Source: SAR116 cluster bacterium AG-390-L20 (lineage in GTDB: Bacteria > Pseudomonadota > Alphaproteobacteria > Puniceispirillales > Marisalimonadaceae). Taken from it: a stretch of 64,000 nt of DNA. The stretch spans positions 43,977 to 107,976 of the forward strand of contig QCHB01000005.1 of assembly GCA_003278095.1 (NCBI GenBank), given 5' to 3'. Every line of letters begins with the position of its first letter. The first letter of the stretch is position 1. The notes beneath the pieces are model-generated. The model was not told the DNA's origin and ran no database searches. It saw only the letters and a list, made by a program, of their open reading frames with translations. The position numbers and the translations under genes were made by a program. This document shows positions 2,280-52,987 of this stretch, one piece after another.

Positions 2280-2415
2280 TTAAGATTATTTTATAAAAAA
2301 AATTACAGTTATTTTATTGATATTATATCATATATAAATTGATGTAATTGTCATTAAATCATAAAGATCTGATATTTTTTTTTAAATATGAGGAAAATAA
2401 TTAGAAAGTTTATAA

Positions 2416-3384
2416 ATGAATAAAAATTATTGGGAAGTTCCAGATAATAAATTAGCCTTAGAAATTAAAAATCTTAATAAATTCTATGATGGAGAAACAA
2501 AAAATATTGCATTAAACAATGTATCTCTAAATATTCCAGCTGGAAGTATTTTTGGTCTTTTGGGCCCTAATGGTGCAGGTAAATCAACTCTGATAAATAT
2601 TATTTCTGGAGCGGTAATTAAAAGTTCTGGCAAGGTAATTGTTTGGGGTTATGATATTGATAAAAACAGAAAACAATCAAAACTAGCAATAGGTGTTGTT
2701 CCACAAGAGTTAAATGTTGATGCTTTTTTTACTCCTCAAGAAACTTTAAATTTACATTCTGGAATGTTTAATGTTCCAAAAAAATCTTGGCGGACAGATG
2801 AATTATTAAAGTTAATGGATTTAAGTAATAAAGCTAAGAGTTATAGTCGAACGTTATCTGGTGGAATGAGAAGAAGATTACTAGTGGCTAAAGCAATGGT
2901 ACATTCACCTCCAATTGTTATACTAGACGAGCCTACTGCAGGGGTAGATGTAGAGTTGAGACAAAAATTATGGAAATATTTTAAAAAATTGAATGAACAG
3001 GGTGTTACTATAATATTAACTACGCACTATCTAGAAGAGGCAGAAAATTTGTGTGACCACATAGCTATTATTAGTAAAGGTGAAATTGTTGCAAATGAAA
3101 CTACAAATTCTCTTCTTACAAAATCAAACAAAAAAATTATTAAAATTACATTAAGTGAAAATGAGATTTCGACAAAAGATAAAAATTTTCTTAAAAATAT
3201 TGGACATATAATAATTCATGAAAATAAAGTGCAATTGCACTTTAATCCTAATAAAATATCTACGAAAAAAATTATTGAGACCTTATATAAATCGAAGTTG
3301 AATATAGTAGATTTATCTACGAAAGATGTAAGTCTTGAAGATATTTTCATTGATATAACAAGAGAAAACAATAGTAAAATATAA
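2416..3384 (+). CDS. ABC transporter ATP-binding protein
   Basis: Walker A GPNGAGKST, ABC signature LSGGMRRR, Walker B ILDEPTAGVD. Confidence 0.9.
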   Translation: MNKNYWEVPDNKLALEIKNLNKFYDGETKNIALNNVSLNIPAGSIFGLLGPNGAGKSTLINIISGAVIKSSGKVIVWGYDIDKNRKQSKLAIGVVPQELNVDAFFTPQETLNLHSGMFNVPKKSWRTDELLKLMDLSNKAKSYSRTLSGGMRRRLLVAKAMVHSPPIVILDEPTAGVDVELRQKLWKYFKKLNEQGVTIILTTHYLEEAENLCDHIAIISKGEIVANETTNSLLTKSNKKIIKITLSENEISTKDKNFLKNIGHIIIHENKVQLHFNPNKISTKKIIETLYKSKLNIVDLSTKDVSLEDIFIDITRENNSKI

Positions 3385-3639
3385 ATGATATGGTTTGTTT
3401 ATATGTTAAGATGTAGAGATAATTCAATCTATACTGGCATAACTAATAACTTAGACAAACGAATTGGAGCACATATGTCTGGAAATGGCTCCAAATATGT
3501 TAGAGGAAGATTACCTGTGCAATTGATTTATAAAGAAGATTTTTCAAATAGAAGTAGCGCTAGTAAAAGAGAAATAGAAGTTAAAAAACTAAACAAAAAA
3601 GAAAAAGAATTATTAATAAATTCTGCTAAACAACTTTAA
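3385..3639 (+). CDS. GIY-YIG nuclease superfamily small protein (UPF0213-like)
   Basis: 84 aa; VYMLRC..SIYTGITNNLDKRIGAH and KREIEVKK resemble the GIY-YIG fold; start abuts upstream stop (TAAATG). Confidence 0.75.
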   Translation: MIWFVYMLRCRDNSIYTGITNNLDKRIGAHMSGNGSKYVRGRLPVQLIYKEDFSNRSSASKREIEVKKLNKKEKELLINSAKQL

Positions 3640-3649
3640 AGGAGAAAAT

Positions 3650-3994
3650 ATGTCTAAATCAAAATATATTTTTATAGTTTCTATGAATGTAAAGTCTGAG
3701 TTTGAAAGTCTGTTTAATGAAGTGTACGACAAGGAACACATACCTTATTTATTGGAAGTACCAGGAGTTAATAAAGTCACAAGAGGTCAAGGCGTTCCTT
3801 TTATGTTCTCTATTGGAGGTGAAACTAAGTCAATGGATGCTCCAAGTCAAAAGTTTGTGGCAATGTATGAAATAGAAAATCCAGACGTAGTTAACAGTAG
3901 TGAATGGTCTGTAGCCGTAGAAAAAGGACGATGGAGTACTCACGTAAGGCAACATACAAGCGAAAGATCTCATTTTATGTACAAATACTGTTAA
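3650..3994 (+). CDS. hypothetical small protein, possibly ferredoxin-like alpha+beta fold
   Basis: 114-aa ORF with GGAG RBS upstream; fold assignment is only a guess from the sequence pattern. Confidence 0.5.
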   Translation: MSKSKYIFIVSMNVKSEFESLFNEVYDKEHIPYLLEVPGVNKVTRGQGVPFMFSIGGETKSMDAPSQKFVAMYEIENPDVVNSSEWSVAVEKGRWSTHVRQHTSERSHFMYKYC

Positions 3995-4089
3995 CCTTTA
4001 AAGTATAACAATTAAAATTTATTTTTTGACTTTTTCAAAGATATTAGTTCATACTAATTTTACTTATTTATACTTTGGGGGGTGTAGAG

Positions 4090-4320
4090 ATGACAAATAT
4101 AATTGAAACAAAGTTTGGAACCTTAGTTAATACAAGTAAAATTGCTGCAGGTAGCGCGTCTAGCATAAAAAAAACTGGAGCTTTTTATAATTTTTCTATC
4201 AGAGTTAGCCAAGATGATATTCGTGAGTACTCCTTTACAGACTTGGCCAGAGCTGAATATATGAGAAGAATTATGATAGGTCATCTGGAAGAAAAAATTA
4301 AAAAAGAGTCTAAAGGCTAA
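4090..4320 (+). CDS. hypothetical protein
   Basis: ORF track 4075..4320; I prefer the internal ATG at 4090 (MTNIIETK) preceded by a G-rich RBS; no recognisable motif. Confidence 0.4.
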   Translation: MTNIIETKFGTLVNTSKIAAGSASSIKKTGAFYNFSIRVSQDDIREYSFTDLARAEYMRRIMIGHLEEKIKKESKG

Positions 4321-4606
4321 TACATTATATATTGTATAATGCAAATACTTAATTTTATTTAATAACTCATTATAATAAATTATTATTATTAAAGATATTT
4401 TAGTTGATAGATATATGTCAGCTTTTCAAGCTTATACATATTGTTGAATTATGAAACATTCATATAAAATGATTAATTTTTAATAACACAGATAGTTTCT
4501 GCATAAATAAATTACATAAACCCAATTTGTATTGAAAAAAACTTTGAGATACTTCAAGTTTTGTTCAATATAATTTTAACCATGGGGGAAATCATGGAGA
4601 ATAAAT

Positions 4607-4819
4607 ATGTTTTTTGCAGTTATGTTAGTATGTTCGCCAATGAACTTAATCCACCACGAAAAAGAATGTTTTGGGATTGAGGATACTAAAGGTTATTATT
4701 CAACAGAGGCTAAATGTAATAAAAGAATAAATGAAATGGAAAATGAGTTGTTACACGTTATAAATTATCCAGCAGTTATTAGTAAGAATTGCATTAAAGT
4801 TAAATTAGAATCTGTATAG
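4607..4819 (+). CDS. hypothetical small protein with hydrophobic N-terminus
   Basis: 70-aa ORF, GGAGAA RBS upstream, N-terminal MFFAVMLVCSP signal-like segment. Confidence 0.35.
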   Translation: MFFAVMLVCSPMNLIHHEKECFGIEDTKGYYSTEAKCNKRINEMENELLHVINYPAVISKNCIKVKLESV

Positions 4820-5086
4820 CTTAACTAAAACAATTAAGAATTTTTATTAAATTCATTAGATAAACTCTTTTAAAATTATTAGTTTTGACAAACATTTATC
4901 GTTGTGTGCATAACCTTGCAAATGAGATACATTATAATTTATTATTTTCAACTAAACCAATTATCATATTCTAGATAAGTTACAATAATTGCTAAAATAA
5001 TATATGCACTAGCATACCATTTAAAAATATAGGGGTGTGGTTTTCCATTTTTTTTCAATTTGTGTCCTTTTAAAAAAATATTGTTA

Positions 5087-5290
5087 TTAAAATATGTACC
5101 CTATGCCAAGGCTAAGCAGCCAAAAAAAACCAAACAAAAAATGTAAAAAAATAGAAAAATAAATTGCTTTTAAAAACTTGTTTTTACCATTATCCCACCA
5201 ACTAACAAATATATATATAAACTTTGAAAATTTATTCTCTCCGTCATTCCACCAATTAGTGAATTTTTTTTCTGTCAGTTTTCTGTTCAT
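5087..5290 (-). CDS. hypothetical small membrane protein with internal repeat
   Basis: 67 aa; repeated unit FTNWWNDGENKFSKFIY / FVSWWDNGKNKFLKAIY followed by a hydrophobic tail. Confidence 0.4.
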   Translation of the reverse strand: MNRKLTEKKFTNWWNDGENKFSKFIYIFVSWWDNGKNKFLKAIYFSIFLHFLFGFFWLLSLGIGYIF

Positions 5291-5630
5291 AAGTCATTTT
5301 AGGACAAGCAATAAATATTTTCAATTTTTAAAATTTGAAGTATGGTATGACTTATATGTTAATTTAATTTTATTAAAAAATAAATCGTAACATTAGTGTA
5401 TAATTATACTTTAAAGTTTTAATCATCAATAAGAACATATATCATTTTATTTAACTATAAATTGGTACCCCATATTTGGATTGGTAAGTATAGAAGGGCT
5501 AATAAAAAAGAAAATATAACCCTTTAACAAAATAAAAAATGTTACAACACATAAAAATATTTTTAGTTCTTTTCTCATAATTAATACTTAACATGTATTA
5601 ATCAATTTTAATAATAGATTATTATTTTCA

Positions 5631-5999
5631 TTATTTACATTCATCAGATGCCACCCACTCTGGCAAAGGTTCACCTCCGGTGTAATGATTATGTGCCGGT
5701 GTTTCTCTAAACAGACAATATACATCTTCTTTAGTAATATTTAGTGTTTCTTTGAGAACTTCAGATATACCGTCAACAAGAGCTTTTTTTCTTCTCGCAT
5801 CTCTCCCGGGTCTCAAATCCACATCAATAACTGGAAGACCATCACCTATAAAACCAAAAGCCTCTCTAATAGAAACATAGTCATATTTAACTTCTTTAGG
5901 AGCTAATGTTTTTAATACAACTTCTCTTACTTTGCTGTGTATTTGTTTTTTAATATCTTTAGAAATACCTTCAGGAACATCTATTCTTATTAATGGCAT
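5631..5999 (-). CDS. tautomerase family protein (4-oxalocrotonate tautomerase-like, long form)
   Basis: Starts MPLIRIDV (Pro-1 after Met removal), typical of the tautomerase superfamily; GGAG RBS upstream. Confidence 0.65.
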   Translation of the reverse strand: MPLIRIDVPEGISKDIKKQIHSKVREVVLKTLAPKEVKYDYVSIREAFGFIGDGLPVIDVDLRPGRDARRKKALVDGISEVLKETLNITKEDVYCLFRETPAHNHYTGGEPLPEWVASDECK

Positions 6000-6194
6000 T
6001 TTATCTCCTATAACTATTTTTAAATATTAAGTAGGAATATACTAATCTAACCAGATATTATCCATAAAGTATTATCCATTTAGTTTATGCATCTAGTAAT
6101 AAAGCAGAGTTATTGTAATCAAAATTATTGGTACATGATTAGTGCTCAACATGTTTATGTAAGTCTATGTAATTCAGAAAGAATGAAGTTATTT

Positions 6195-6980
6195 TTATTT
6201 AAAAATTGCTGAAATGTTTCCAAACAAACTAGAGTTAACCTCTATCAGTTTTTTATCAACTATTGGAATTGGAGGACCATATGCCCCTGTCAAAATAAGA
6301 TCCCCTTTTTTTATTTGATTATTCATCTTAGCTTGTTCAATAACAAACCACTCAACCGCTGATAACATGTCAATAGGCCATATTTTATTTGTCCATTTAT
6401 CTATTATGATTTTATCATAAATCAATTTTAGGTCAGTAATTTCTCCAAATTCTGGTTTGTCTATTCCAAGACCACAAACCACGCCGGCATTTATTGCATT
6501 GTTTGAAATATGTTCTGCACCATAGGGTTTATCACCATAAAATATTAGATTATGTATTTCAATTATTGGGTGAATTGTGTCAATTGAAGCTAATATATAT
6601 TCAAAACTAACTTCTTTAGGATGTAAATCACGATTGAATCTTATACCAAATTCAGCTTCCATTGCTGGATTTGAATAATTTTCTTTATTTAATTTTATTC
6701 CATTTGAATGAAGTTCACTTTCCCATAAACGTCCCCAAGCTGGATAGGAAAAACCGTATTTTTTTTGTGTTTGTTTTGAAATACTACCAATTTTGTAACC
6801 AATTACTTTTTCACCTCTTTTGATTCTGAGATCAGTTAGTATTGATTGAATTTTATAAGCATCTGAGATACTAATCTTGATATTTTTATTTTTAAACAAA
6901 GCACTATGATTTTTCGCATCGTAATCGTTTAAAATTTTCTGGGCATGGCTCTCTAATTTATTTTGAGTTAATTCATTCAT
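6195..6980 (-). CDS. 2-keto-4-pentenoate hydratase / FAH-fold hydratase-decarboxylase family
   Basis: 261 aa; GYKIG motif and overall MhpD/HpcG-like pattern; adjacent to the tautomerase gene. Confidence 0.65.
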   Translation of the reverse strand: MNELTQNKLESHAQKILNDYDAKNHSALFKNKNIKISISDAYKIQSILTDLRIKRGEKVIGYKIGSISKQTQKKYGFSYPAWGRLWESELHSNGIKLNKENYSNPAMEAEFGIRFNRDLHPKEVSFEYILASIDTIHPIIEIHNLIFYGDKPYGAEHISNNAINAGVVCGLGIDKPEFGEITDLKLIYDKIIIDKWTNKIWPIDMLSAVEWFVIEQAKMNNQIKKGDLILTGAYGPPIPIVDKKLIEVNSSLFGNISAIFK

Positions 6981-7247
6981 ATTGTATTTTTATTTAATTA
7001 AATATTGTGCCTAACTCAACATTAAGAGTATTATGAATTTAGTATAGAATAAACGTATATCTCATTAATAAAATAACTAACTTATATGATCAGTTATGTT
7101 ATGATGAGAATTATTTATACCAGAAGAATATATTTTTTAGTTTTCAATAATATAATCCAAAATAGTAATTGCTTTGCTTAAAGCTAATTTAGACATCATT
7201 AAAAAATTTTTAAGGATAAAGTATAGACGTCCAACAAACAAAATATT

Positions 7248-7997
7248 TTATAAATTTTTGATCAATAATGAAAAACCAATAACAATTAAAATCATTAAAA
7301 TAGTTTTTCTAAATATTATGTTAGATAATTTCATCCTAATTTTAGTTCCTAAATACTGTCCTAACAAAGCTGGTGCAGTAATGATCAGACTCACCAACAA
7401 ATCATAAAAGTTACCTAAACCATGAAAAATAAGGGATGAATATAATGGTATAGAAGCTAAGAAATACATTGTTGCTGTAGTTCTTATAAAATTCTCTTTT
7501 GCTAAATTTAATGAGACTAAAAAGGTAATTATAGGCGGTGCGTAGAAGGTAGACACCCCCCCCAGAATACCTGAAAAAAAACCAATAAAGATTGATATTA
7601 TTTTCTCATATTTTGGTTTAAGCCAATTTAGATTTAATCCTAAAAAGTTTAAACCCGTAAAAATAATAATTGTCAACGCAATTATTATTGAAATTGTTTT
7701 CAAATTTAAACTTAATATTAGTTTTCCACCGATAAGTATACCTAAAAAAAGTGTTATAAACATTGGAAAAAACCTATAACTGCTTATTCCTCTTTTGATA
7801 TCCATTTGGATGAAGTTTGTTATAATAACTGGAAAGCATAAAAACATCATTGCTTTAGTAGGTGGCAAAATAAAAGCTATCAATGGAACTGAAAACATAG
7901 ACATTCCAATACCAACCGATCCTTTAACTATTCCTCCAAAAAATACAGAGCACAAAATTACAGAAAAAGTAATAGTTTCAAAATATTCTAAAAACAT
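7248..7997 (-). CDS. TauE/SafE (TSUP) family anion exporter membrane protein
   Basis: 249 aa, about 8 hydrophobic helices, GGIVKGSVGIG and GILGGVS glycine motifs typical of DUF81/TSUP. Confidence 0.75.
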   Translation of the reverse strand: MFLEYFETITFSVILCSVFFGGIVKGSVGIGMSMFSVPLIAFILPPTKAMMFLCFPVIITNFIQMDIKRGISSYRFFPMFITLFLGILIGGKLILSLNLKTISIIIALTIIIFTGLNFLGLNLNWLKPKYEKIISIFIGFFSGILGGVSTFYAPPIITFLVSLNLAKENFIRTTATMYFLASIPLYSSLIFHGLGNFYDLLVSLIITAPALLGQYLGTKIRMKLSNIIFRKTILMILIVIGFSLLIKNL

Positions 7998-8025
7998 ACT
8001 TTTATATTAAGTGGAATGATCACGC

Positions 8026-8037
8026 CTCGTAAAGTGA
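8026..8037. repeat. orphan CCTCGTAAAGTG box (5' box of type-A repeats) at the distal edge of the cassette array
   Basis: cctcgtaaagtg matches the start of A1 (tctcgtaaagtg), A3 (cctcgtaaagta) and A4 (cttcgtgaagtg), but the rest of the repeat is absent. Confidence 0.5.
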
Positions 8038-8073
8038 ATTGAGAAAGACCTTATTTTTATTATTTATTAATTT

Positions 8074-8412
8074 TTAAAAACCAGAGTATTTAACATTTTC
8101 AAAAAGATTAAAATCACTCTGAGTTGACATTCTTCCTTGAGTTTCACCTCCAACTATTGTCATTGTGGCTCCCATTTCTGTGATCTGTTTTTTTAAATCT
8201 GAATATTCACCTGCTTGTTTAAAAGATTTATCCCATTCTTTTTTTGACTTCCAAACAGTTAAAAATTGAAAAGAGATATCTGAAATATCAATAAATAATG
8301 AAAAATTTAAACCATCTTTAAATAAAGAATCTGTATAATTTATACAAAAAAATTTAAAAGAGTCCCTTGAAACCTTGTTTACAAATTTAAAAACATGGGT
8401 TCTCGTATACAT
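8074..8412 (-). CDS. hypothetical small protein, family 2 (paralog of 8752..9075)
   Basis: FLTVWKSKKEWDKSF..ITEMGATMTIVGGET aligns with MFHLWKDKSSLIKTR..IKEMGGIVSKSEGET of the neighbour; possible ABM-like alpha+beta barrel. Confidence 0.5.
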   Translation of the reverse strand: MYTRTHVFKFVNKVSRDSFKFFCINYTDSLFKDGLNFSLFIDISDISFQFLTVWKSKKEWDKSFKQAGEYSDLKKQITEMGATMTIVGGETQGRMSTQSDFNLFENVKYSGF

Positions 8413-8470
8413 ATTTTTTCCTTTTTTCTCATTTTTAATTTTTTAAATATAATTTAATGAAATTAGATTA

Positions 8471-8752
8471 TCAATCTAAACAGTACTTAATTGGTCCCTC
8501 AAATGACCTTATTTTTAAGTTAGTTTTCAATTCATTAATTTCTAGATTATTCATGATTTTTATTCTATCTGTAGATTTCTTATCTTTAAATCTAGCAACA
8601 ACAAACGCTGACATATCATTTACTCTGAAAACTTTTGCAGACTTTTGACCCTATTCAAAATTTTTTGGAAAATGAGTAATTCTTAAATAATCTAAAAAAA
8701 TATTTAATTGAAGTTTAGTTGGAGCTGTTATTTCTACAATTCTAACGTACAT
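8471..8752 (-). pseudogene. small ORF interrupted by an in-frame TAG (8651-8653)
   Basis: My translation: MYVRIVEITAPTKLQLNIFLDYLRITHFPKNFE*GQKSAKVFRVNDMSAFVVARFKDKKSTDRIKIMNNLEINELKTNLKIRSFEGPIKYCLD*. Its ATG overlaps the TGA of the upstream ORF (TGATG at 8750-8754). Confidence 0.45.
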
Positions 8753-9075
8753 CACTTAACCTGTACATTAGCATTATTTATTAGTTTTGACATTTCAACT
8801 ACCGTTTCACCCTCTGATTTACTTACTATTCCTCCCATTTCTTTTATATCATTCCAAAACTTATTGGAAAACTTTGTTCTTGTTTTTATTAAAGATGATT
8901 TATCTTTCCATAAATGAAACATATCTATTTGAGTATCTGATACTTCCGTGAAGCACCTAATTAACAAGCCTCCACTTTCATTAAACAACTCTTCACTCAT
9001 ATTTTTGAGGGACATAACTATAGAATCTTTGGCTAATTTATTTTGTAATTTTACAGTAACTGTTATTCCATACAT
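8752..9075 (-). CDS. hypothetical small protein, family 2
   Basis: 107 aa, paralogous to 8074..8412 (see that entry). Confidence 0.5.
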   Translation of the reverse strand: MYGITVTVKLQNKLAKDSIVMSLKNMSEELFNESGGLLIRCFTEVSDTQIDMFHLWKDKSSLIKTRTKFSNKFWNDIKEMGGIVSKSEGETVVEMSKLINNANVQVK

Positions 9076-9112
9076 ATTTTAAATTCCATAAGCATTTTGA
9101 TACTGACATATT

Positions 9113-9244
9113 TTAATCAAATCGAACATATCTCGTAAAGTGTTAAACATTTTAATGTCTAATATAAAGTCTTTCAGAAAGGCTAATGCAATCGAAGTAA
9201 TAGTTTTAGTTGTTGTCGCTAAGTAAGGCTGTATGAGCCAGGAG
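9113..9244. repeat. type-A structured repeat, copy A1 (most diverged)
   Basis: tctcgtaaagtgttaaacattttaatgtctaatataaagtct...ggctaatgcaatcgaag...aggctgtatgagccagga aligns with A2-A5; abuts the stop of ORF 9245..9583. Confidence 0.7.
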
Positions 9245-9583
9245 TTAGACTCTCAAATCCTGAAGAACAATGTTTCTACTTGCCTCTATAACAGGGTCTG
9301 CGGCTTGAAGTTCTTTCATAATGTTTTTGGTAAAATTTTCTAATTCATTTTGAGATTGTTTAAATGAAGTTGGACTTTCATACTCAAACAAAATAGATAT
9401 TTTAAATGTTCCCTTCATATTCCATATTTGATTAAGACAAAATCTTGTACATCCTTTTTTTTTAAGTTTGTCAAACAATGCTGTACCATTATCTTCCCAA
9501 ATTCTTCTAAAAAGAAGCATTTGCGCTTCTGTCTTGAAAGTAAAAGTATTGTAAGTCATTAAATTTGCTTTTGTATCCAACAT
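9245..9583 (-). CDS. hypothetical small protein, family 1 (WN-x-G...FEY motif), diverged member
   Basis: KKKGCTRFCLNQIWNMKGTFKISILFEYESPTSFKQSQ aligns with the other three members. Confidence 0.55.
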   Translation of the reverse strand: MLDTKANLMTYNTFTFKTEAQMLLFRRIWEDNGTALFDKLKKKGCTRFCLNQIWNMKGTFKISILFEYESPTSFKQSQNELENFTKNIMKELQAADPVIEASRNIVLQDLRV

Positions 9584-9702
9584 AAACTCCTAGTCTGCAA
9601 AAATTTATAATAAATTAAGGTATCAATCAAACCTATCTATGTTAAGTAAAAAGGAACCAAAACTTTAACACTTTGTTTCATCGTTTTGATTAAAGATAAT
9701 AA

Positions 9703-10045
9703 AATTTTATAATTACATTAAGTTAAATTTTAGATTAATGCGATTGAGAAGCAGTTCCATACTCTACTTATGCATCGTGTCCTATCACAATCAAGCTATA
9801 TATTGAGATATGGATACATATGGCATTGTCAATAGGCACCATATGTTTCACACTTTGTTTTACATCTTAATTTAGCGTTCTTAGTATAGAAAAATGGGTC
9901 ACTAAATATGTATAAATATACCTAATTATAATAACACTTCTATGTATCACTTAAGTGTAACACTATAAGTGTAATCCTGCCCCACACGTGTGCCACCCGA
10001 CCCTTGTCGGTATAGTATACATAGGCTTTGCAGCAGATGAAGGTA
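9703..10045. repeat. type-B non-coding module, copy B1 (contains decayed tRNA-Leu 3'-end fragment)
   Basis: 9710-9735 matches 14851-14876 at 25/26. 9862-10040 is roughly 85% identical by eye to 15012-15194. Ends in tatagtatacataggctttgcagcagatgaagg. Confidence 0.75.
9736..9751 (-). repeat. degenerate copy of the tRNA-Leu 3' end
   Basis: taatgcgattgagaag versus tggtgcggctgagaag (12/16), in the same position relative to the conserved flank ttaaattttagat as the exact copy at 14877. Confidence 0.5.
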
Positions 10046-10112
10046 TTTACAATAATTAGACAGTGAAATATTCTACTATTAATCACTTTAACTTTTTAAA
10101 TAGGACACTTTT

Positions 10113-10457
10113 ATGACTTCTTCAAAACTAGTAAATTATACCACAAGAGAATTTATGTCAGACCATGAACTTGAACATTACATAGTTAAACAAAACGAAA
10201 TATTTACACCAAAAGTTGTTGAAGAATTTACGAAAGCTGGAATGTTAAGAAGAGTTTTGACAAAACTTTGGAATAAAGAAGGTGTCCATAGAGTTGGTAT
10301 ATTATTTGAGTATAGAGACGAAAAAGCATATGTTGCATGTCAAAGTCTATTAGAAAAGCATTATATCCCAATGGTAAAAACATTTATTACTAAAGTAATA
10401 GGAAGCCGGGGTATAGTAGTCCATGAATTTAGTTCTGAAGAATTTACGAAGGGATAA
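10113..10457 (+). CDS. hypothetical small protein, family 1 (only plus-strand member)
   Basis: KAGMLRRVLTKLWNKEGVHRVGILFEYRDEKAYVACQ; lies between B1 and A2. Confidence 0.6.
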   Translation: MTSSKLVNYTTREFMSDHELEHYIVKQNEIFTPKVVEEFTKAGMLRRVLTKLWNKEGVHRVGILFEYRDEKAYVACQSLLEKHYIPMVKTFITKVIGSRGIVVHEFSSEEFTKG

Positions 10458-10463
10458 AATAAC

Positions 10464-10580
10464 TAAAGTGTTTACCATTTTAATGACTAATACAGAGTTA
10501 TACAGCAAGGTTAATGTAATCAGATTCAATTAATATCAGCTATAGTTTTAGTGGTTGTGTCAGTCTGAATGAGTCAGGAA
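10464..10580. repeat. type-A structured repeat, copy A2
   Basis: taaagtgtttaccattttaatgactaatacagagtta..cagcaaggttaatgtaatcagattca..cagtctgaatgagtcagga. Arms 10484-10500 and 10561-10576 pair at 12/16. Confidence 0.75.
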
Positions 10581-10594
10581 TTTATAGTCTGATT

Positions 10595-10969
10595 TTATTT
10601 ATTATTTTCATACCACTTATCTAAGTTTATTATTTCATCTTTTGGTTTTAAACTTGACGTAAACCTCTCTACTTCAACAACAAAAAAACTAGCATACTTA
10701 TCTGTTCCCCAACTTTGAACTTGCTTTTCTACATCTTCCTTTGAGTTAGCTAAATAATGAGAACAAAAAAAGGTACTATTGTTTCCAAGCCACGTTTGAG
10801 AGCATGTTGCAAACTCTCCAACTGCATCTTCAGCCCATTTGCCGTGAGTAACACCTTTTGGATACAATTTGTTAAAAGAGGATTTATATTCATCTGACTT
10901 TTTCTCTGACAGAAAGTCATAAATAACAATATAGTTATTCTTTCTATTTTCAGTATTTGTTTTCACCAT
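10595..10969 (-). CDS. hypothetical protein
   Basis: 124-aa ORF between A2 and B2; no motif recognised. Confidence 0.5.
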   Translation of the reverse strand: MVKTNTENRKNNYIVIYDFLSEKKSDEYKSSFNKLYPKGVTHGKWAEDAVGEFATCSQTWLGNNSTFFCSHYLANSKEDVEKQVQSWGTDKYASFFVVEVERFTSSLKPKDEIINLDKWYENNK

Positions 10970-10992
10970 CTACCTATCAATACTTTTGCAAT

Positions 10993-11280
10993 AGCATCAG
11001 TTTATGTGTTCCTAAATCTGTGTCAACAGGCACATAATGGTCTGCCGTTTGGTGTACCCTTAGAAATCTTCTGGTAATGTAAAGAACCTTCAAATTTATA
11101 CACATATAAATATACTCAACTACATACTATCTTCTTCATTAGTCAGTTAATATATTACAATTAATATGTAGTCATTTAGGTGTGCAGTTATATGTATTAT
11201 TTAAGTGACCCTACCCACAGATGGGACATAGGACGGTGTACGTATAGTATACATAGGCTCTGCAACAGATGGAGTGTTAA
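10993..11280. repeat. type-B non-coding module, copy B2 (left end truncated, no tRNA fragment)
   Basis: gcatcagtttatgtgttcctaaatctgtgtcaacaggcacataatggtctgccgtttggtgtaccc and tatagtatacataggctctgcaacagatggagtgttaa match B4; the middle is diverged. Confidence 0.7.
11036..11058. repeat. tandem direct repeat, 12-bp period (aatggtctgcc g tttggtgtacc)
   Basis: Same position within the B module as 14983-15005. Confidence 0.6.
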
Positions 11281-11636
11281 TAATTATAATCTAATAAATT
11301 AAGTGTTCTTGTAGTTAATCTTTTCACAGTGATTTTCTTAAAGAAATTTTCATTCTCTTTAAAATGTTTTTCTATAACTTTTTGTCCCTTAACATAGGCA
11401 TTTTCGTCTTTATATTCAAATAACGTTGACAAAGCAAAACCACCTTCTTTGTTCCATACCTGATTCAATCTAAAGCGCATCAATCCAATTTTTTTCATGC
11501 TTTCATAAAAGTTTGAACCTGTTCTTTCTACATAATTTATAAATAATTCCATTTCGGCTTCACTAGAAAAATCTATTAAAACATGACTAATTAGTTTTGC
11601 TGATGGTATTGAATTTTTATGTTCGTTCATACACAT
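11277..11636 (-). CDS. hypothetical small protein, family 1
   Basis: KKIGLMRFRLNQVWNKEGGFALSTLFEYKDENAYVKGQ; its TAA stop (11277-11279) lies inside the AGTGTTAA box that ends B2. Confidence 0.6.
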   Translation of the reverse strand: MCMNEHKNSIPSAKLISHVLIDFSSEAEMELFINYVERTGSNFYESMKKIGLMRFRLNQVWNKEGGFALSTLFEYKDENAYVKGQKVIEKHFKENENFFKKITVKRLTTRTLNLLDYNY

Positions 11637-11697
11637 AACCTATTTACTAATTTAAAATATTAAAAAATAAAATTATAACTTTGTAGTTACTATATTA

Positions 11698-12000
11698 TTA
11701 TATTCCTTCAACCATAAGTATGTTTGAAGTAGAATTTTCTAATCTTACTTTTTTATAAGGTCTGTATTCTTCACTATCATACCATTTCATAGCTGATTTT
11801 TTGTCAGGAAATTTTACTAATACCATTCTAGTAGGTTTCCATAAATTTGTTTCCAAAGAATCTATCTCTCCACCCCGAATTAAGTATTCACCACCATAGC
11901 TTTCAATCATAGGTTTAACTTTTTCCATATATTTCTGGTATTCTTCTATGTTGTGTATATCCACGTCACCAATCATATAAACTGACATAATCGTCTCCAT
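11698..12000 (-). CDS. DUF1330-like protein
   Basis: SVYMIGDVDIHN..EEYQKYMEKV.P.IESYGGEYLIRGG...MVLVKFPDKKSAMKWYDSEEY matches the DUF1330 pattern as I recall it; the true start may be the ATG at 11985. Confidence 0.65.
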   Translation of the reverse strand: METIMSVYMIGDVDIHNIEEYQKYMEKVKPMIESYGGEYLIRGGEIDSLETNLWKPTRMVLVKFPDKKSAMKWYDSEEYRPYKKVRLENSTSNILMVEGI

Positions 12001-12116
12001 GCTTTCTTTTTCATATTTATATCGCTAATCAAATACCTACAAACAAAATATATAAACTACCAAACAATAAAAAATCAATTATGACAATTTTCATAAAGCT
12101 ATTCATGCTAATAGTT

Positions 12117-12259
12117 TAATCCAAAGAAACACTCCTCGTAAAGTATTAACCAATTTAATGACTAATACAGAGTCATGCAGCAGGGTTAATGTAATCAGAG
12201 TCAAAATGGGTGCATGAGATGTTGTTATAGTGATTGAATGAGTCTGTATGAATCAGGGA
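12117..12259. repeat. type-A structured repeat, copy A3
   Basis: taatccaaagaaacactcctcgtaaagtattaaccaatttaatgactaatacagagtcatgcagcagggttaatgtaatcagagtca...tgagtctgtatgaatcaggga. Arms 12159-12175 and 12239-12255 pair at 14/17. Confidence 0.8.
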
Positions 12260-12357
12260 TGGGTGTGGTAACACTTATATCAAAATTCGTAGAAAGCTAT
12301 TAAATGGAAATCCAACTCTGAGTATTTTATAGGATAGATTACAATTTAAATTTGTAA

Positions 12358-12783
12358 TTATTTGGCGAATACAGTAAGTGGTCCAAGACCTTCAGCTCCA
12401 GCAATTACAGCATACACTATTGTGGGCGTTTTAGCTGTGTTTGTAACAGTGTGAGGTGAATTTGTTGCTTCAACAAACGTATCTCCGGCCTTATAGACTA
12501 CCTTTTTTCCATTAGGACGTTCTGAGGTAACCTCCCCTGACATTATATGCACGATAAGGGGTGCAGGATGAGTATGCTTTGGTAATTTTCCACCCACTGG
12601 AAATATTACCTGAACAATAGTCATTTTTGGAGTACCTTTAGGGTAAGAAATAGCTTCACCTGCACTAGATTTAGAACTTGAATGTAACACTGTTACTTGT
12701 GGTTTTAATTGTTTTGAATTGGCCACATTTGCAAATACTGCTATAGTTAATATAATTATCAATTTTGTAATTAATTTATTCAT
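12358..12783 (-). CDS. secreted cupin-domain protein
   Basis: N-terminal signal-like MNKLITKLIIILTIAVFANVANS; cupin motifs HTHPAPLIVHIMSGEV and GDTFVEATNSPHTVTN. Confidence 0.75.
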   Translation of the reverse strand: MNKLITKLIIILTIAVFANVANSKQLKPQVTVLHSSSKSSAGEAISYPKGTPKMTIVQVIFPVGGKLPKHTHPAPLIVHIMSGEVTSERPNGKKVVYKAGDTFVEATNSPHTVTNTAKTPTIVYAVIAGAEGLGPLTVFAK

Positions 12784-12892
12784 TAGATTTCCCTTTTAAC
12801 TTATTTAAACCAAAAATTTATACTCATTTATAATGATTTGTCTGTAAAGTATTTACATATTTAAAAATATAAGACTGTACAAATAATAAGCA

Positions 12893-12945
12893 TATATGAG
12901 GGTGTAGCTATATATGTATAGTTAGCGTCTGTAGCAGATGGGATT
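12893..12945. repeat. type-B module fragment, copy B3 (3' end only)
   Basis: tatatatgtatagttagcgtctgtagcagatggg aligns with tatatacataggctctgcagcagatgggg of B4. Confidence 0.5.
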
Positions 12946-13006
12946 TTAGAATTGGTATAGTACGTAGATGAATATTATTGTTAGCCCAAGCATAAGTATA
13001 AACTTC

Positions 13007-13360
13007 TTATATACTCCAATCATATTTAAACTCAGAAACCACTATTCCCCTATTATTAAATATTTTGAAAACAAATTTTGCTAAGGTTGGACAATTTTCA
13101 GGTGTGAAAGCAACATTTAAAATATTTTCACATTTTTTAAAAGATGTCTCACTGTCATATTCAAAAACTTGAGTAATTCTATGATGTCCTTTATTCCATA
13201 CTTTAGAAATTACATGACGAATTAAACCATTTTGCTTCAATTGAGAGTAAAGTTTATCTGTCCATATTTCATCAAGAGATTTCAAAAATAAATCTAATTC
13301 ATTTTCAGTTGAAAAATCCATATACAGTGAGTTAAGAAAAGCCGTATCTTTATTTTTCAT
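13007..13360 (-). CDS. hypothetical small protein, family 1
   Basis: KQNGLIRHVISKVWNKGHHRITQVFEYDSETSFKKCE. Confidence 0.6.
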   Translation of the reverse strand: MKNKDTAFLNSLYMDFSTENELDLFLKSLDEIWTDKLYSQLKQNGLIRHVISKVWNKGHHRITQVFEYDSETSFKKCENILNVAFTPENCPTLAKFVFKIFNNRGIVVSEFKYDWSI

Positions 13361-13441
13361 TTATTTCTAAAAACCTTAAAGTTTCATTTTTAAAAAATTA
13401 GTTTTATTTTTTACATATTAATTTTTTATATCTATATATCC

Positions 13442-13581
13442 TAATCCAAACAAACACCCTTCGTGAAGTGTTAACTATTTTAATGACTCTTACAGAGTCA
13501 TATAGCAGGGTTAATGTAATCAGAGTCATTGATATATGAAATATAGTTGAAGTGGCTTTATGAAACTGAGTGAGTCAGGGA
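13442..13581. repeat. type-A structured repeat, copy A4
   Basis: taatccaaacaaacacccttcgtgaagtgttaactattttaatgactcttacagagtcatatagcagggttaatgtaatcagagtca...actgagtgagtcaggga. Contains a perfect 7-bp palindrome, tgactct tac agagtca, at 13484-13500. Confidence 0.8.
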
Positions 13582-13596
13582 TTAATAAAACTATCT

Positions 13597-14742
13597 CTAA
13601 TTAATCTCTTCTACTATTTTAGAAACAACACCTTTTTTGAATAAGTTTCCATATTTATATTTTTCATCAACTGAAAACATAGTTAAGATTGTGTTTTTAG
13701 TAGTATTAATAACATTAAAAAATCCACCATGACCTGTCATAGTTAATGTTGGTACGCCATTTACTTCGTATACCCAAAACTGATATCCGTATCGTACTCC
13801 ATCTCTTTTTGTCTCAACTGCATTTTCAATACCTTCTTTATAAAATTTACCTAAACACGTATTATTAATCATTTCGTCATGTATAAATTGACCAAAGTTT
13901 GACCAATCTAATACACTCATTGTCAACCTAGCTTGGGCAACTGTAATTCCTTTTTTATCTGAAACCCAATGCATGAATTTATTTTGGCTAAATTTTTTAA
14001 AAGCATTTTCATAGAAAATTTGACTTGCTGGTCTGTTTGTTAAATCAGTAATCATAATTGAAAGTGCGAATGGGTCTGATGAAAAATAAAAATGTTTTGA
14101 GCCTTGTTCTCTGTCATTATCCTTTAAAATTGAAATAGCCTTAAACATACTAGCTTTTCCTTCATATTTTCTCAGCCCCATTGCCATTTGGTTCATCTTT
14201 CTTCTTAGCTTATAATCATTTTGTATTGGCGCCACTCCACTATTCATCTGCAGTGTGTTTCTTATAGTTATTTTAGAGTATGGAGTTTGCTTGAGTGAAG
14301 AAGAATATTTACCTAATTCATCATCTAATGATTCAATTTTACCGATGCAAACAAGACTACCAATTGCCGTAGCCAATGCTGTTTTTGCCATAGACATACC
14401 GTGTAATATCGTATTACTATCAATATTTCTTTTTTTATTAAATCTTGCATAAACTAAATCATTATTTTTTCTTATTAACGCAGCTAAATTGTTTTTATCT
14501 TTAAAAATATTGTCATAATTTTCTTTTTTCAAATTGACACTATCAAGATTTTGTTTTTCCCCATAACTATGAATATTTATTTTAAAAGGACCAAACTTTT
14601 TTGTTTCATGAACATTAAAATAGGGCTTTATTTGCCTTTTCCACATTTTTTTAGGCCCATGGTCAGCGTAAGAAATAAAGAAAAATGAAAAATAAATTGT
14701 TATAGATAAAAATAACTTGAACATAAATAGCCTCAAATACAA
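13597..14742 (-). CDS. serine hydrolase, beta-lactamase/transpeptidase-like family, membrane-anchored or secreted
   Basis: 381 aa; hydrophobic N-terminus; S-x-x-K motif SMAK in GMSMAKTALATAIG. Confidence 0.7.
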   Translation of the reverse strand: MYLRLFMFKLFLSITIYFSFFFISYADHGPKKMWKRQIKPYFNVHETKKFGPFKINIHSYGEKQNLDSVNLKKENYDNIFKDKNNLAALIRKNNDLVYARFNKKRNIDSNTILHGMSMAKTALATAIGSLVCIGKIESLDDELGKYSSSLKQTPYSKITIRNTLQMNSGVAPIQNDYKLRRKMNQMAMGLRKYEGKASMFKAISILKDNDREQGSKHFYFSSDPFALSIMITDLTNRPASQIFYENAFKKFSQNKFMHWVSDKKGITVAQARLTMSVLDWSNFGQFIHDEMINNTCLGKFYKEGIENAVETKRDGVRYGYQFWVYEVNGVPTLTMTGHGGFFNVINTTKNTILTMFSVDEKYKYGNLFKKGVVSKIVEEIN

Positions 14743-14876
14743 TTAATTAATATGTTAATAATAAACATATTAATTAATTTTAAAACAAAAAAATAAGCAC
14801 CAAATTTTTCAATCTATTTCACAGTGTTAATTTAAAAAAATAAAATTTAATAATTACAGTAAGTTAAATTTTAGAT

Positions 14877-14893
14877 TGGTGCGGCTGAGAAGA
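14877..14893 (-). repeat. exact 17-bp duplicate of the tRNA-Leu(GAG) 3' end (candidate att core)
   Basis: tggtgcggctgagaaga is identical to 16101-16117 (3' strand of the T stem, acceptor 3' strand and ACCA). Confidence 0.85.
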
Positions 14894-14982
14894 TTTAAGT
14901 TAATCTAAGATGCACCACTTGAGGTTGTATACAAGCTCTATGCTCAGTTTATGTATTACCGAATCCGTGTCAACAGGCACAT

Positions 14983-15005
14983 TTTGGTCTACCGTTTGGT
15001 CTACC
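14983..15005. repeat. tandem direct repeat TTTGGTCTACC g TTTGGTCTACC
   Basis: Perfect 11-mer twice with a 12-bp period, about 90 bp from the 14877 core copy. Confidence 0.8.
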
Positions 15006-15201
15006 CTAAATGTTACATCTTAATTTAGCGTTCTTAGTATAGAGAACATAGAAATGGATATGTGTAAATATACCTAAACTATAATAACATTTATATGTAT
15101 CATTTAAGTGTAACACTATAAGTGTAATCCTACCCCACAAGTGAGCCACCCCACCCTTGTACGGATATATACATAGGCTCTGCAGCAGATGGGGTATAAA
15201 T

Positions 15202-15316
15202 AGTGTTAACCATTTTAATGTGTCATAGAGGTTCAAGCAGTAGGGTCTATTTAATCAGAGCCAATGGTACATTGGATGTGTTTATAGTAGTTGTTTGAGT
15301 CTATGTGAATTAAAGA
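15202..15316. repeat. type-A structured repeat, copy A5 (fused to B4)
   Basis: agtgttaaccattttaatgtgtcatagaggttcaagcagtagggtctatttaatcagagcca...tgagtctatgtgaatta. The stem cataga/tctatg shows two compensatory changes relative to tacaga/tctgta of A3. Confidence 0.7.
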
Positions 15317-15507
15317 TGGAGAGTTAAAGTTTACTACCACTAACTTTTATTAATTAATTTAATTTGTTTTTCATTCATATTTTTTAACTGATTTGGTAAA
15401 GTTATTTCATCAGTCCATAAAAGCTTAATATTCAAGCCAACATTAACATATTATAATGATACGTAATCTAGGCTTCTTATAAATATTCAACCTATAAATA
15501 TTAAACC

Positions 15508-15864
15508 TTAAGCATTAACCTTCTTTTTAGATTTCCAAATTAAAAAAACTAGAGATAAAACTTGAGCTGCAAGTAAAAACCACACAAGTCCTGCTATTGA
15601 ATTTTCATCTGCATTTTCAGCACTTGCTGCAACCCATAAAAGAGGAGAAAGGAAAAACAAGCTTAAAAAATTGACTCCAATTGCTATATACCCTAAAAGC
15701 GCACTTTTTCCATAAGATAATGCAGCAAGAATTGCAGAAACTACAGTAAGGTAAACACCGATAACTGGAATAAAAATGGATATCCCGGCTAGAACAATAG
15801 ATAATATACCCATTACTTTACCACGAGAACCTTCTTGTGAAACAACTTCATTAGATTCATTCAT
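15508..15864 (-). CDS. hypothetical small membrane protein
   Basis: 118 aa, 3-4 predicted hydrophobic helices, lysine-rich C-terminus; only ORF inside the mini-element. Confidence 0.55.
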   Translation of the reverse strand: MNESNEVVSQEGSRGKVMGILSIVLAGISIFIPVIGVYLTVVSAILAALSYGKSALLGYIAIGVNFLSLFFLSPLLWVAASAENADENSIAGLVWFLLAAQVLSLVFLIWKSKKKVNA

Positions 15865-16012
15865 AATTTTTTCCTTTAGTTCAATTATAAAATTAAATAA
15901 TTAATTTACATAAAAATAAGTCTATTTAAATGTACTTAAAAAATTTAAATAGTCAATTTTTAAAATTAAAAGTAATTTTATAATCAAATATGGAATGTGA
16001 AGGGAACATTTA

Positions 16013-16035
16013 AATGGTCTACTATTTGGTCTACC
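16013..16035. repeat. tandem direct repeat aatggtctact a tttggtctacc
   Basis: Same motif, orientation and 12-bp period as 14983-15005; lies 65 bp from the tRNA 3' end. Confidence 0.75.
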
Positions 16036-16100
16036 CTCCAAGGACACATTACAAAATATGCTTACACATCAACTACTTAGGATGACTGAATCACTTGAAA

Positions 16101-16187
16101 TGGTGCGGCTGAGAAGACTCGAACTTCCACGGGTTTTACCCCACAGCGACCTCAACGCTGCGCGTCTACCAGTTCCGCCACAGCCGC
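16101..16187 (-). tRNA. tRNA-Leu (anticodon GAG), CCA encoded
   Basis: Reverse complement is GCGGCTGTGGCGGAACTGGTAGACGCGCAGCGTTGAGGTCGCTGTGGGGTAAAACCCGTGGAAGTTCGAGTCTTCTCAGCCGCACCA. Features: 7-bp acceptor stem, anticodon loop TTGAGGT, long variable arm. Confidence 0.9.
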
Positions 16188-16277
16188 ATATAAAAAGTCA
16201 TGTTTGCGATAACAAAACAATTTGTATAATGCAAGTTAAATAATATATTAGCAAATGATAGGATTAGGGTTATTAAA

Positions 16278-16928
16278 TTGACACAGACTGTTGAATGGAA
16301 AATATCGAATAAGTTGATAAATTATGATTTTGCCATCTCAGTAATGGAAAAAAGAGTTTTAAATATAAAAAGAAACTCTGAGAAAGAATTAGTTTGGCTT
16401 TTAGAACATGAGTCTATCTACACAGCAGGAACATCTGCAAAAGATAACGATCTGATAAATAATAGAGTAGAAATTCGTCGTACTGGAAGAGGAGGACAAT
16501 GGACATGGCACGGTCCAGGTCAGAGAGTAGTATACTTGATGCTTAATCTTAAAAATAGAATACAAGACGTAAAAGCATATGTACATGCTCTTGAAGAATT
16601 AGTTATCTTATCATTAAGTGATTTCGATATCTATGGAGTAAGAATAAAAAATCAGCCAGGTGTCTGGGTAAATACAAACAACAGATTTGATAAAATTGCT
16701 GCTTTAGGCATTCGAATTTCTAGTTGGATCACTTATCATGGCATATCTATAAATCTAAATCCTAATCTAGAGGAATTTAAAAACATTGTACCATGTGGAA
16801 TTAAAGATAGTGGGATAACTAGCCTACATAAATTAAATAAGAATGTTTCATTTGACGAATTAGATAATAGTTTAAAAAAATATTTTGAAAAAATTTTTGG
16901 TGAAAATGGTTCATTTTTTATAAAGTAA
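16278..16928 (+). CDS. lipB: lipoyl(octanoyl) transferase
   Basis: RTGRGGQWTWHGPGQRVVY and ALGIR...HGISINL motifs; TTG start. Confidence 0.85.
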   Translation: MTQTVEWKISNKLINYDFAISVMEKRVLNIKRNSEKELVWLLEHESIYTAGTSAKDNDLINNRVEIRRTGRGGQWTWHGPGQRVVYLMLNLKNRIQDVKAYVHALEELVILSLSDFDIYGVRIKNQPGVWVNTNNRFDKIAALGIRISSWITYHGISINLNPNLEEFKNIVPCGIKDSGITSLHKLNKNVSFDELDNSLKKYFEKIFGENGSFFIK

Positions 16929-50406: not shown

Positions 50407-50482
50407 TGGCAGGAGTGGAGGGGCTCGAACCCCCAGCCCCCGGTTTTGGAGACCGGTGCTCTACCAGTTGAGCTACACTCCT
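50407..50482 (-). tRNA. tRNA-Trp (anticodon CCA)
   Basis: Reverse complement is AGGAGTGTAGCTCAACTGGTAGAGCACCGGTCTCCAAAACCGGGGGCTGGGGGTTCGAGCCCCTCCACTCCTGCCA. Confidence 0.9.

Positions 50483-52911: not shown

Positions 52912-52987
<76 letters not shown>

Follow-up and report, generated by a model that had tools for sequence, protein, structure and literature searches.

A decayed integrative element at the tRNA-Leu(GAG) gene of a SAR116 bacterium, very probably the tRNA-proximal unit of a tandem array

The DNA analyzed here is a stretch of 64,000 nucleotides from SAR116 cluster bacterium AG-390-L20 (contig QCHB01000005.1, positions 43,977 to 107,976), called the window below. In it the 3' end of a tRNA-Leu(GAG) gene recurs as an exact direct repeat about 1.2 kb away, and the DNA between the two copies (14894-16100) is named E1. 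Very probably E1 is the tRNA-proximal unit of several decayed site-specific integrative elements that stand in tandem at tRNA-Leu(GAG) of this low-GC SAR116 bacterium. A preliminary description, made from the sequence of the window, had pointed out the repeat and proposed that a tyrosine integrase had acted there. Comparison loci from related genomes and metagenomes carry L numbers.

Results

The direct repeat at tRNA-Leu(GAG)

The 17-bp repeat given in the preliminary description was found again by exact matching, and the tRNA gene to which it belongs was recognized by both ARAGORN and Rfam (Table 1). As read from the sequence, TGGTGCGGCTGAGAAGA consists of the last base of the T loop, the 3' strand of the T stem, the 3' strand of the acceptor stem and ACCA. 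There are two exact sites for it in the 64-kb window and no further site with up to 2 mismatches on either strand; two matches arose in 0 of 100 dinucleotide shuffles. Comparison with the tRNA also bore out that identity ends abruptly on either side of the copy at 14877, and no longer tRNA fragment is duplicated there. The direct repeat is the 3' part of an intact tRNA gene, the generic mark of a tRNA island. The statements that the bracketed DNA contains no recombinase gene and encodes only a 118-aa membrane protein held as well: one credible gene (15508-15864) was found, and tblastn and profile hidden Markov model (HMM) searches detected no recombinase either there or in the whole window.

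An integrase family occupies the same position in relatives

Relatives have, 50-90 nt downstream of the 3' end of tRNA-Leu and on the strand of the tRNA, an integrase open reading frame (ORF) of 377-389 aa (full-length at L003, L005, L009, L012, L032, L035, L036, L041, L057 and L069). Recombination by a tyrosine integrase at the tRNA 3' end, as previously suggested, is supported by this family, which sits exactly there in relatives. Its members combine the Pfam domains DUF6538 and Phage_integrase and correspond to the phrog_1 integrase of PHROGs, with weak, sub-threshold Xer/XerA matches only in NCBIfam. At least three subtypes are found at tRNA-Leu, namely int9 (L009, and L003 at 91%), int36 (L036, L012, L035 and L005; about 65% to int9) and the type of L057/L069 (about 60%). 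An IMG/VR scan with int9 returned no relative and one with the int36 arm pattern nothing, so these scans give no evidence that the integrase family is phage-borne.

The two ends of E1 match the arms of one attachment site

The end of E1 next to the tRNA (S arm, read from 16100 to 16001) is 93-95% identical to the interval between tRNA and integrase in L003 and L009. The similarity spans GGAGG, which is the Shine-Dalgarno sequence (16035-39), as well as the start codon and the opening codons, MVDHLNVS. The start codon is mutated from ATG to ATA (16023-25), and about 8 integrase codons survive, from about 16025 to about 16002. With residues 1-20 of int9 as query, tblastn gave a short match at 16049-15990 (65% identity, E 7e-5); besides this 5' remnant, neither tblastn nor a profile HMM built from 14 family members found a significant match to the family integrase in the window.

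The opposite end (P' arm, read from 15320 to 14894) is a non-coding stretch of about 430 nt between the 118-aa gene and the distal core. Its counterpart, over 14894-15301 of the window, is the P' arm that lies directly upstream of core, S arm and int9 in L091 (81% over 431 nt) and L009 (87%); in L036 the counterpart is inverted and stands beside the integrase. The non-coding DNA of the segment had been described as a set of conserved modules. These modules make up the conserved distal arm of the element and are not unrelated pieces. A promoter scan marked a promoter-like TTGACA-16-TAAACT (14973 to 14946) directed at the core.

Both arms carry a repeat that follows the integrase subtype. Every P' arm has a tandem direct repeat about 95-115 nt from the core, just upstream of the conserved gtgcctgTTGACAc, and in the S arms a copy of the same tandem repeat brackets the integrase start. 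The repeated unit is GTAGACC (with the variants GTTGACC and GCAGACC) in the int9 subtype, TGTGAAAGA in int36 and TGATGTACAAA in the L057/L069 type. E1 has the int9 motif twice at each end (14986-15004 and 16016-16034), seen on the plus strand as GGTCTAC at 14986-92 and 14998-15004 in the P' arm and at 16016-22 and 16028-34 in the S arm. The unit next to E1 has TGTGAAA-type remnants at both of its ends, in the arm at 14789-14876 (F arm) and near 9838-9860. Since repeat and subtype covary, the two ends of each unit belong together. This covariation suggests that the arm repeats are candidate arm-type or autoregulatory integrase-binding sites. By their similarities, the ends of E1 are the two arms of the family's attP, S on the integrase side and P' on the distal side. 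The earlier view of the repeats at 14877 and 16101 as attL/attR is thereby strengthened, because E1 ends in matched P' and S arms of one subtype.

An independent example of this core-between-arms layout is L088 (IMG/VR UViG_3300025645_000807), a viral contig of higher G+C content. GGTAGACCAAAAAGTAGACC, the motif of the SAR116 int9 arms, occurs there at 1392-1412 and 1658-1678 and flanks a core derived from a tRNA 3' fragment, which adjoins the contig's own tyrosine integrase. That integrase has no detectable similarity to int9 and DUF6538 is absent from it.

The matched ends also bear on another origin of the repeat, namely homologous recombination or gene conversion between units of a cassette array, or a duplication that included the tRNA end. 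Such events are at home in a mosaic island like this one: recombination between copies of a repeated module, D2 (see below), removed cassettes in L176/L177, a 388-nt gene unit is placed differently in L004, and the same cargo genes occur at tRNA-Ser(GGA) islands of other genomes. However, tRNA identity is limited to 16-17 nt, which is the core of every attP-like site of the family, with no longer fragment copied, and the ends of E1 are matched arms of one subtype, unlike those of the neighbouring unit. An origin of this kind seems very improbable.

Loss of the integrase gene

The order in E1, starting from the tRNA, is core, S arm, junction, AT-rich spacer, 118-aa gene, P' arm and distal core. 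At the junction, similarity to int9 stops at about 16002, and similarity to DUF6974 genes covers 16014 down to 15981; the DUF6974 fragment is 97-100% identical to the DUF6974 genes of L004, L006, L007, L011 and L046. The overlap of the two is a microhomology of 10-12 nt, aacatttaaa (16005-16014), that is present in both parents. In L009 the DUF6974 gene is convergent with the integrase, and a deletion between short direct repeats in an L009-like ancestor would explain the loss of the integrase.

From this anatomy we infer the following course. An attP with three parts would have lain on a circular element: a P' arm, a copy of the tRNA 3' end 16-17 nt long, and an S arm with the integrase gene behind it. 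Recombination between this site and the tRNA 3' end, by the element's own tyrosine integrase of the int9 subtype, would have restored the tRNA and left a 17-nt partial copy at the far end. The junction at which integrase codon ~8 is fused to the convergent DUF6974 gene is seen directly; a microhomology-mediated deletion is the process that probably produced it. A second deletion, with a break near 15981, may have taken the rest of the DUF6974 module. This would leave the two cores and the two att arms with a single gene, for the small membrane protein. The product of this gene has about 3-4 hydrophobic segments, a sub-threshold DUF5684 match only in Pfam, and 20 homologues (47-98% identity) from marine metagenomes and one NCBI record.

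Relatives show the same loss at other stages, with integrase stubs of 27 (L001), 67 (proximal copy of L012), 85 (L002) and 217 (L008) codons and a frameshifted gene in L065. In the array of the window about 8 codons remain in E1 and about 6 integrase-like codons in the F arm. Remnants of so many lengths form a continuum of decay, and they were counted in favour of E1 as a decayed unit. A cognate integrase no longer adjoins the att site in E1 but does so at the same position in relatives; E1 is thus a derivative and not an autonomous member of the family.

Empty sites and the tandem array

It had been predicted that related genomes would show an empty site, and such sites exist in L004, L007, L010 and L011. 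In L010 the intact tRNA is directly followed by the sequence that the window has just past the copy at 14877, atctaaaatttaactt...; a paralogue of this sequence, located past 9735 in the window, comes directly after the tRNA in L004, L007 and L011. Precise empty sites are therefore present in related genomes, with none found in the same strain, and distant relatives lack the island.

The sequence left of 14877 was considered as ancestral chromosome, and this was rejected, since it recurs at 9648-9733 and shares homology with integrase-side arms of the S36 type. The alignment of the flank with these arms extends to a vestigial start (GTGAGAAACATTTTGTGC versus ATGAGAAATAAATGTGTC), and the flank retains the TGTGAAA motif together with its few integrase-like codons; hybrids of F and S36 arms occur in L006 and L007. 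It can be seen that the array reads tRNA[core]-E1-[core]-F arm-E2-P'-[degenerate core 9735-9751]-F' arm-E3 (DUF6974 ...), with all arm pieces in one orientation. The older unit E2 has its P' arm at 9752-10060 and contains a beta-lactamase-like gene, three DUF6974 genes, genes for a cupin and a DUF1330 protein, a 124-aa ORF and D2 modules; further D2 modules in the E3 region lie at 9117-9248 and 6047-6179. Being tRNA-proximal, E1 is probably the youngest unit.

A junction joining 16100 through one core to 14894 had been named as the signature of a circle. The junction itself was found in L009 and L091; it lies there in a chromosomal or tandem attP-like copy, so its presence is no proof of a circle. 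It was rejected as such proof for this reason, and inverted repeats can mislead short-read assemblers.

Table 1. Features of the tRNA-Leu(GAG) island in the window
Feature	Position	Strand	Basis or remark
tRNA-Leu(GAG), intact; attB, now attL	16101-16187	-	ARAGORN; Rfam tRNA 50.9 bits
Core repeat TGGTGCGGCTGAGAAGA, tRNA copy, 17 nt	16101-16117	-	exact match
Core repeat TGGTGCGGCTGAGAAGA, distal copy (attR core)	14877-14893	-	exact match
S arm, int9-subtype integrase-side att arm	16001-16100	-	similarity to L003, L009
DUF6974 gene fragment, NQIWNVKGTFK	15981-16014	+	antisense relative to integrase remnant
Cargo gene, 118-aa small membrane protein	15508-15864	-	ORF
D2 module, innermost part of distal arm	15182-15320	-	nhmmer E 1e-30
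Rest of P' arm: repeat families D3, D5, D8	14894-15181	-	
F arm, decayed S36-type integrase-side arm of older unit E2	14789-14876	-	similarity to S36 arms
Older composite unit E2, body	9752-14788	-	Pfam, repeats, alignment
Degenerate third core copy, then arm F' (9648-9733)	9735-9751	-	
Oldest island part, E3 and beyond	4820-9734	-	left limit approximate; relatives' synteny, D2 matches

The D2 modules

D2 is a module of about 140 nt with six copies, all on the minus strand (6047-6179, 9117-9248, 10447-10584, 12120-12263, 13445-13585 and 15182-15320); the island holds them all, and the remaining 48 kb of the window has none. The copies are about 1.3-3 kb apart, and four of them stand 40-120 nt upstream of a small cargo gene. 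D2 resembles a shared promoter/operator, a role predicted from the TTGACT and the GTTAAC palindrome that it contains. RNAalifold on 15 copies predicted 0 pairs and no consensus structure, and on that ground D2 was dropped as a structured RNA or attC. A Rfam search of 8900-16250 (gathering and E<=1 thresholds) matched the tRNA and nothing else, so the non-coding modules of the island belong to no known RNA family.

The regular spacing and single orientation of D2, its place upstream of cargo genes, the shuffling of these genes between islands and the integrase adjoining the primary site in relatives would all suit an integron-like platform, in which a resident integrase at the tRNA end captures promoter-bearing single-gene cassettes and E1 is one such cassette. 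We can give this proposal hardly any weight, given that D2 has neither an attC-like hairpin nor a conserved fold, that only 2-3 units keep the core, and that the integrase has phage-type arms and no integron-integrase signature. Moreover, E1 carries an integrase 5' end, which means that it once had an integrase of its own.

Host, locus and limits of the island

The host is a low-GC SAR116 alphaproteobacterium, and the DNA around the locus is AT-rich (about 30% G+C). Beside the tRNA lies lipB (16278-16928), whose product is 90-97% identical to those of low-GC SAR116 single-cell genomes and 70% identical to that of cultured Ca. Levibacter (locus L012), a lineage that received its name in PMC12421898. 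tRNA-Leu(GAG) lies beside lipB in those SAR116 relatives that were scanned for tRNAs too. To the right of tRNA-Leu synteny is kept in the relatives compared, and to the left it breaks. In distant relatives the whole island is absent and window positions 1-4314, with or without 4606-4821, abut the tRNA; the island therefore extends over about 4.8-16.1 kb. Closer relatives hold differing subsets of these roughly 11 kb, and many single-cell contigs stop 0.4-5 kb from tRNA-Leu, as expected of a repetitive, variable region. The island is made of several decayed units, of which E1 is the tRNA-proximal one. Among relatives with LipB at 94% identity or more, the position next to the tRNA is taken by a full int9 in L003 and a full int36 in L005, by truncated integrases in L001 and L002, and directly by an older unit in L004.

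Decay versus mobility of E1

Several observations weigh against E1 as the tRNA-proximal member of an array of decayed elements, or at least against parts of that interpretation. No circular form or excision product of E1 was seen. No genome was found in which tRNA-Leu abuts the F arm and beta-lactamase-like unit of this window, and the F-type arm of L010 is followed by other cargo. Arm-type integrase binding by the repeats is a role suggested by covariation. Finally, four contigs from four ENA assemblies (L081-L084) contain the E1 deletion junction and the gene at about 92% identity, and they have no core and no outer arm; after their D2 comes another D2 and an E3-type DUF6974 gene. The shared deletion must thus be old; some E1-type units have no repeats around them, and certain lineages are losing the distal arm. 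Other searches were empty: no second copy of E1, circle or other location came from the homologue and metagenome searches, an exact-pattern metagenome scan for the deletion junction gave nothing, and neither did exact-protein look-ups with the 118-aa protein, LipB and the beta-lactamase-like protein.

Among finished genomes, the nearest counterpart to E1 is a 2.5-kb unit of L012 (Ca. Levibacter sp. Uisw_134_01, NZ_CP159808; 7340-9841). It has exact cores, a 67-codon integrase stub, three unknown ORFs, a P' arm and a 279-nt direct repeat (98% identical), with the tRNA on one side of it and a full integrase unit on the other.

It might be argued that E1 is active now, as a miniature element resembling a cis-mobilizable element (CIME) or a miniature inverted-repeat transposable element (MITE), excised and re-integrated in trans, or in cis after accretion, by an int9-type integrase that an incoming element or a different tRNA island of the genome would encode. 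Both cores are exact at 17/17, each arm has two perfect GTAGACC motifs and the -35 region is conserved. Integrases of the int9 type, with the same S arm and motif, are found at tRNA-Gly(TCC), Gly(GCC), Phe, Arg and Leu, which makes a helper elsewhere in the genome plausible. The integrase-truncated unit of L012 sits where a later arrival would be expected, and integrase-less F-type arms join at least 4 different cargoes at the same point. Nevertheless, present activity seems unlikely: the searches above yielded neither a further copy nor a circle, nor E1 at a different site, the distal arm is destroyed in L081-L084, relatives hold integrase remnants of many lengths, and the debris at the junction (a 34-nt gene fragment and a mutated start codon) is what random decay predicts. 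In its structure E1 is now CIME-like and non-autonomous, and its excision would need a cognate int9-type integrase from elsewhere. Most likely E1 is decaying in place.

Target tRNAs of the integrase family

A metagenome scan with the integrase alignment gave 80 loci. Where a tRNA was found, the integrase lies just downstream of Leu(GAG), Gly(TCC), Gly(GCC), Phe(GAA), Arg(TCG) or Thr(TGT). Integrases of the int9 type that are 77-94% identical and have near-identical S arms occur at Leu-GAG, Gly-TCC, Gly-GCC, Phe-GAA and Arg-TCG (L092, L094, L096, L097, L098, L104, L107 and L110). Subtype and target are decoupled in this family, with int9 at five tRNAs and three subtypes at tRNA-Leu. In the attP-like sites the arms are constant and the 15-17 nt cores come from different tRNAs. 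It appears that a swappable core determines which tRNA is targeted. Loci with different tRNAs on either side of the integrase (L098, L110, L094 and L147) are possible assembly chimeras, and that configuration was not used as evidence.

The other tRNA genes noted in the window, tRNA-Trp (50407-50482), tRNA-Tyr (51763-51847) and tRNA-Thr(TGT) (52912-52987), have neither partial repeats nor an integrase. In L151, L152 and L155 the Tyr/Thr pair is followed by a family integrase right after tRNA-Thr, a site that is unoccupied in the genome of the window.

Inverted attachment sites around the integrase gene

In many family loci an inverted copy of core and S arm flanks the integrase gene, sometimes with one small gene between; the inverted S copy was present in 46 of the 72 loci with enough flank. 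In the single-cell genomes the copies are 79-80 nt long and 100% identical (L036, 3944-4022/5173-5251; L035, 6013-6092/7240-7319), and in the complete genome L012 they measure 242 nt at 90% (5885-6126/7277-7518). An inverted copy is present in L009 as well (1-174). An inverted P' arm follows the inverted core and S copy, so that a full element (L035, L091) reads core-S-int-S(inv)-core(inv)-P'(inv)-cargo-P'-core. Short-read assemblies can make false joins at inverted repeats. Inversion, antisense control of the integrase, or a spare or second attP are possibilities for the inverted att site.

The contig L091 (1-11005, Ga0209337_1003544) reads P'(inv, partial)-8.6 kb cargo-P'-core-S-int9 (91%)-ORF175-S(inv)-core(inv), and its cargo includes M48/MORN and trypsin-like peptidases and HNH. 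Both contig ends lie within 100% inverted repeats. Closed up, it would form a circle of some 11.2 kb that carries two inverted attP sites; it is equally compatible with a tandem chromosomal copy.

Taken to its limit, the family might amount to a working system in SAR116, with an integrase lineage of fixed arms, interchangeable tRNA-derived cores of 15-17 nt by which it settles at many tRNA genes, a second, inverted attP, E1-like units moved in trans and integron-like arrays at tRNAs. We regard this extension as doubtful. Within such a system the inverted attP might allow inversion, dual targeting or an amplification of copies like that of the yeast 2-micron plasmid.

Cargo of the islands

DUF6974 is the signature cargo of these elements. 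Four paralogues (9245-9583, minus; 10113-10457, plus; 11277-11636, minus; 13007-13360, minus) and the fragment at 15981-16014 (plus) lie within one 7-kb island. The beta-lactamase-like gene of E2 (13597-14742) has 228 close homologues. In L176/L177 (93% nucleotide identity) the unit tRNA-proximal of this gene is a DUF6974 unit with a full P' arm and not E1, and two genes were removed by D2-to-D2 recombination. In L169, L170 and L179 (50-97 kb) the beta-lactamase-like gene is found beside lepA, some 230 nt downstream of tRNA-Ser(GGA), and is preceded by an integrase-less arm (5684-6000 in L169) with tandem TGTACCCAG, a fourth type of arm motif at a seventh tRNA. L178 has the cupin, DUF1330 and beta-lactamase-like genes in a different order. 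A 388-nt piece with the 124-aa ORF (no Pfam match), at 10594-10981 in the window, is found elsewhere in the island of L004 (8175-8562); neither a repeat module nor an obvious target duplication was seen at its edges. Cargo is common to, and shuffled among, the tRNA islands.

Discussion

The element family behind E1 appears to be undescribed. Neither the inverted att copies nor the occurrence of one subtype at five tRNAs was found described in the SAR116 literature compared; the SAR116 genomics papers among it, including PMC12421898, do not mention integrases, and the term DUF6538 was not found in the literature searched. E1 by itself is ordinary, a decayed integrative element that agrees with the model of tRNA-seeded islands proposed for Prochlorococcus, and its surprise is moderate to low. 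Its value is that it gives SAR116, a marine clade of high abundance, a clean case dissected in full; the locus illustrates the gain of small cargo genes by a streamlined genome and the later loss of the machinery of delivery. The features of the parent family, namely arm repeats that covary with subtype, swappable tRNA cores and inverted att copies around the integrase, merit a dedicated study. If they hold, they bear on how integrases change targets and how flexible islands are built in oligotrophic ocean bacteria.

Comparison with known systems

The array resembles an integron array in its small, mostly single-gene units of one orientation with a conserved non-coding module and an adjacent site for a tyrosine recombinase. 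It differs in having no attC-type folded site and no IntI-type integrase; its primary site is a tRNA 3' end and its units carry remnants of their own integrases. E1 is not an integron cassette.

In a lambda-type attP, as used by the tyrosine integrases of phages and islands, the core is flanked by arm-type integrase sites. The E1 family has the same short, tRNA-identical core, arms with repeated motifs and an integrase gene abutting attP. The P' arm of the E1 family, in contrast, is unusually long at about 430 nt, and its arm sites are candidates predicted from repeats.

In the model proposed for Prochlorococcus, elements enter islands at a tRNA and push older ones inward, leaving partial tRNAs and fragmented integrases, and the integrases of tycheposons cluster by target tRNA (bioRxiv 10.1101/2020.12.28.424599). 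Tycheposons and cryptic integrase-only elements share with the present island a tyrosine recombinase at a tRNA, a streamlined marine host and older elements pushed inward, and the SAR116 island too has partial tRNAs and fragmented integrases. The tRNA-targeting recombinase belongs to the parent family, not to E1 itself. No replication module (primase, helicase, polymerase) was present in the cargo of L091, L012, L036, L003 or the window island, and clustering by target tRNA was not seen in the SAR116 family, in which, unlike in tycheposons, one integrase subtype (77-94% identity) is found at five tRNAs. The inverted att copies around the SAR116 integrase are likewise not described in bioRxiv 10.1101/2020.12.28.424599. 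By the hallmarks of replication module and tRNA clustering, E1 is not a tycheposon.

CIMEs, known from the ICE (integrative and conjugative element) and IME (integrative and mobilizable element) systems of streptococci, have lost their integration and transfer genes and kept attL and attR (PMC5704250). The preliminary description had likened E1 both to these and to decayed tycheposons; each structural step of that interpretation is supported, although by its hallmarks (replication module, tRNA clustering) the tycheposon comparison does not hold, and the first stands as to structure, with both att sites and no integrase. E1 differs from CIMEs in size, being far smaller at 1.2 kb, and the SAR116 elements show no transfer genes and have no known conjugative partner; mobilization by accretion would apply to E1 by analogy. 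The likeness lies in the att sites kept at the tRNA 3' end (exact cores, arms with the int9 motif), in the loss of the integrase (no ORF in E1 or the window; about 8 codons and the ribosome-binding site remain), in the descent by deletion from an autonomous element (93-95% identity to L003/L009 and a microhomology junction) and in the accretion-like tandem array with related units, a setting also seen in L012, where an integrase-truncated unit stands in tandem with a full one. Judged by this anatomy, E1 fits the structural definition of a CIME.

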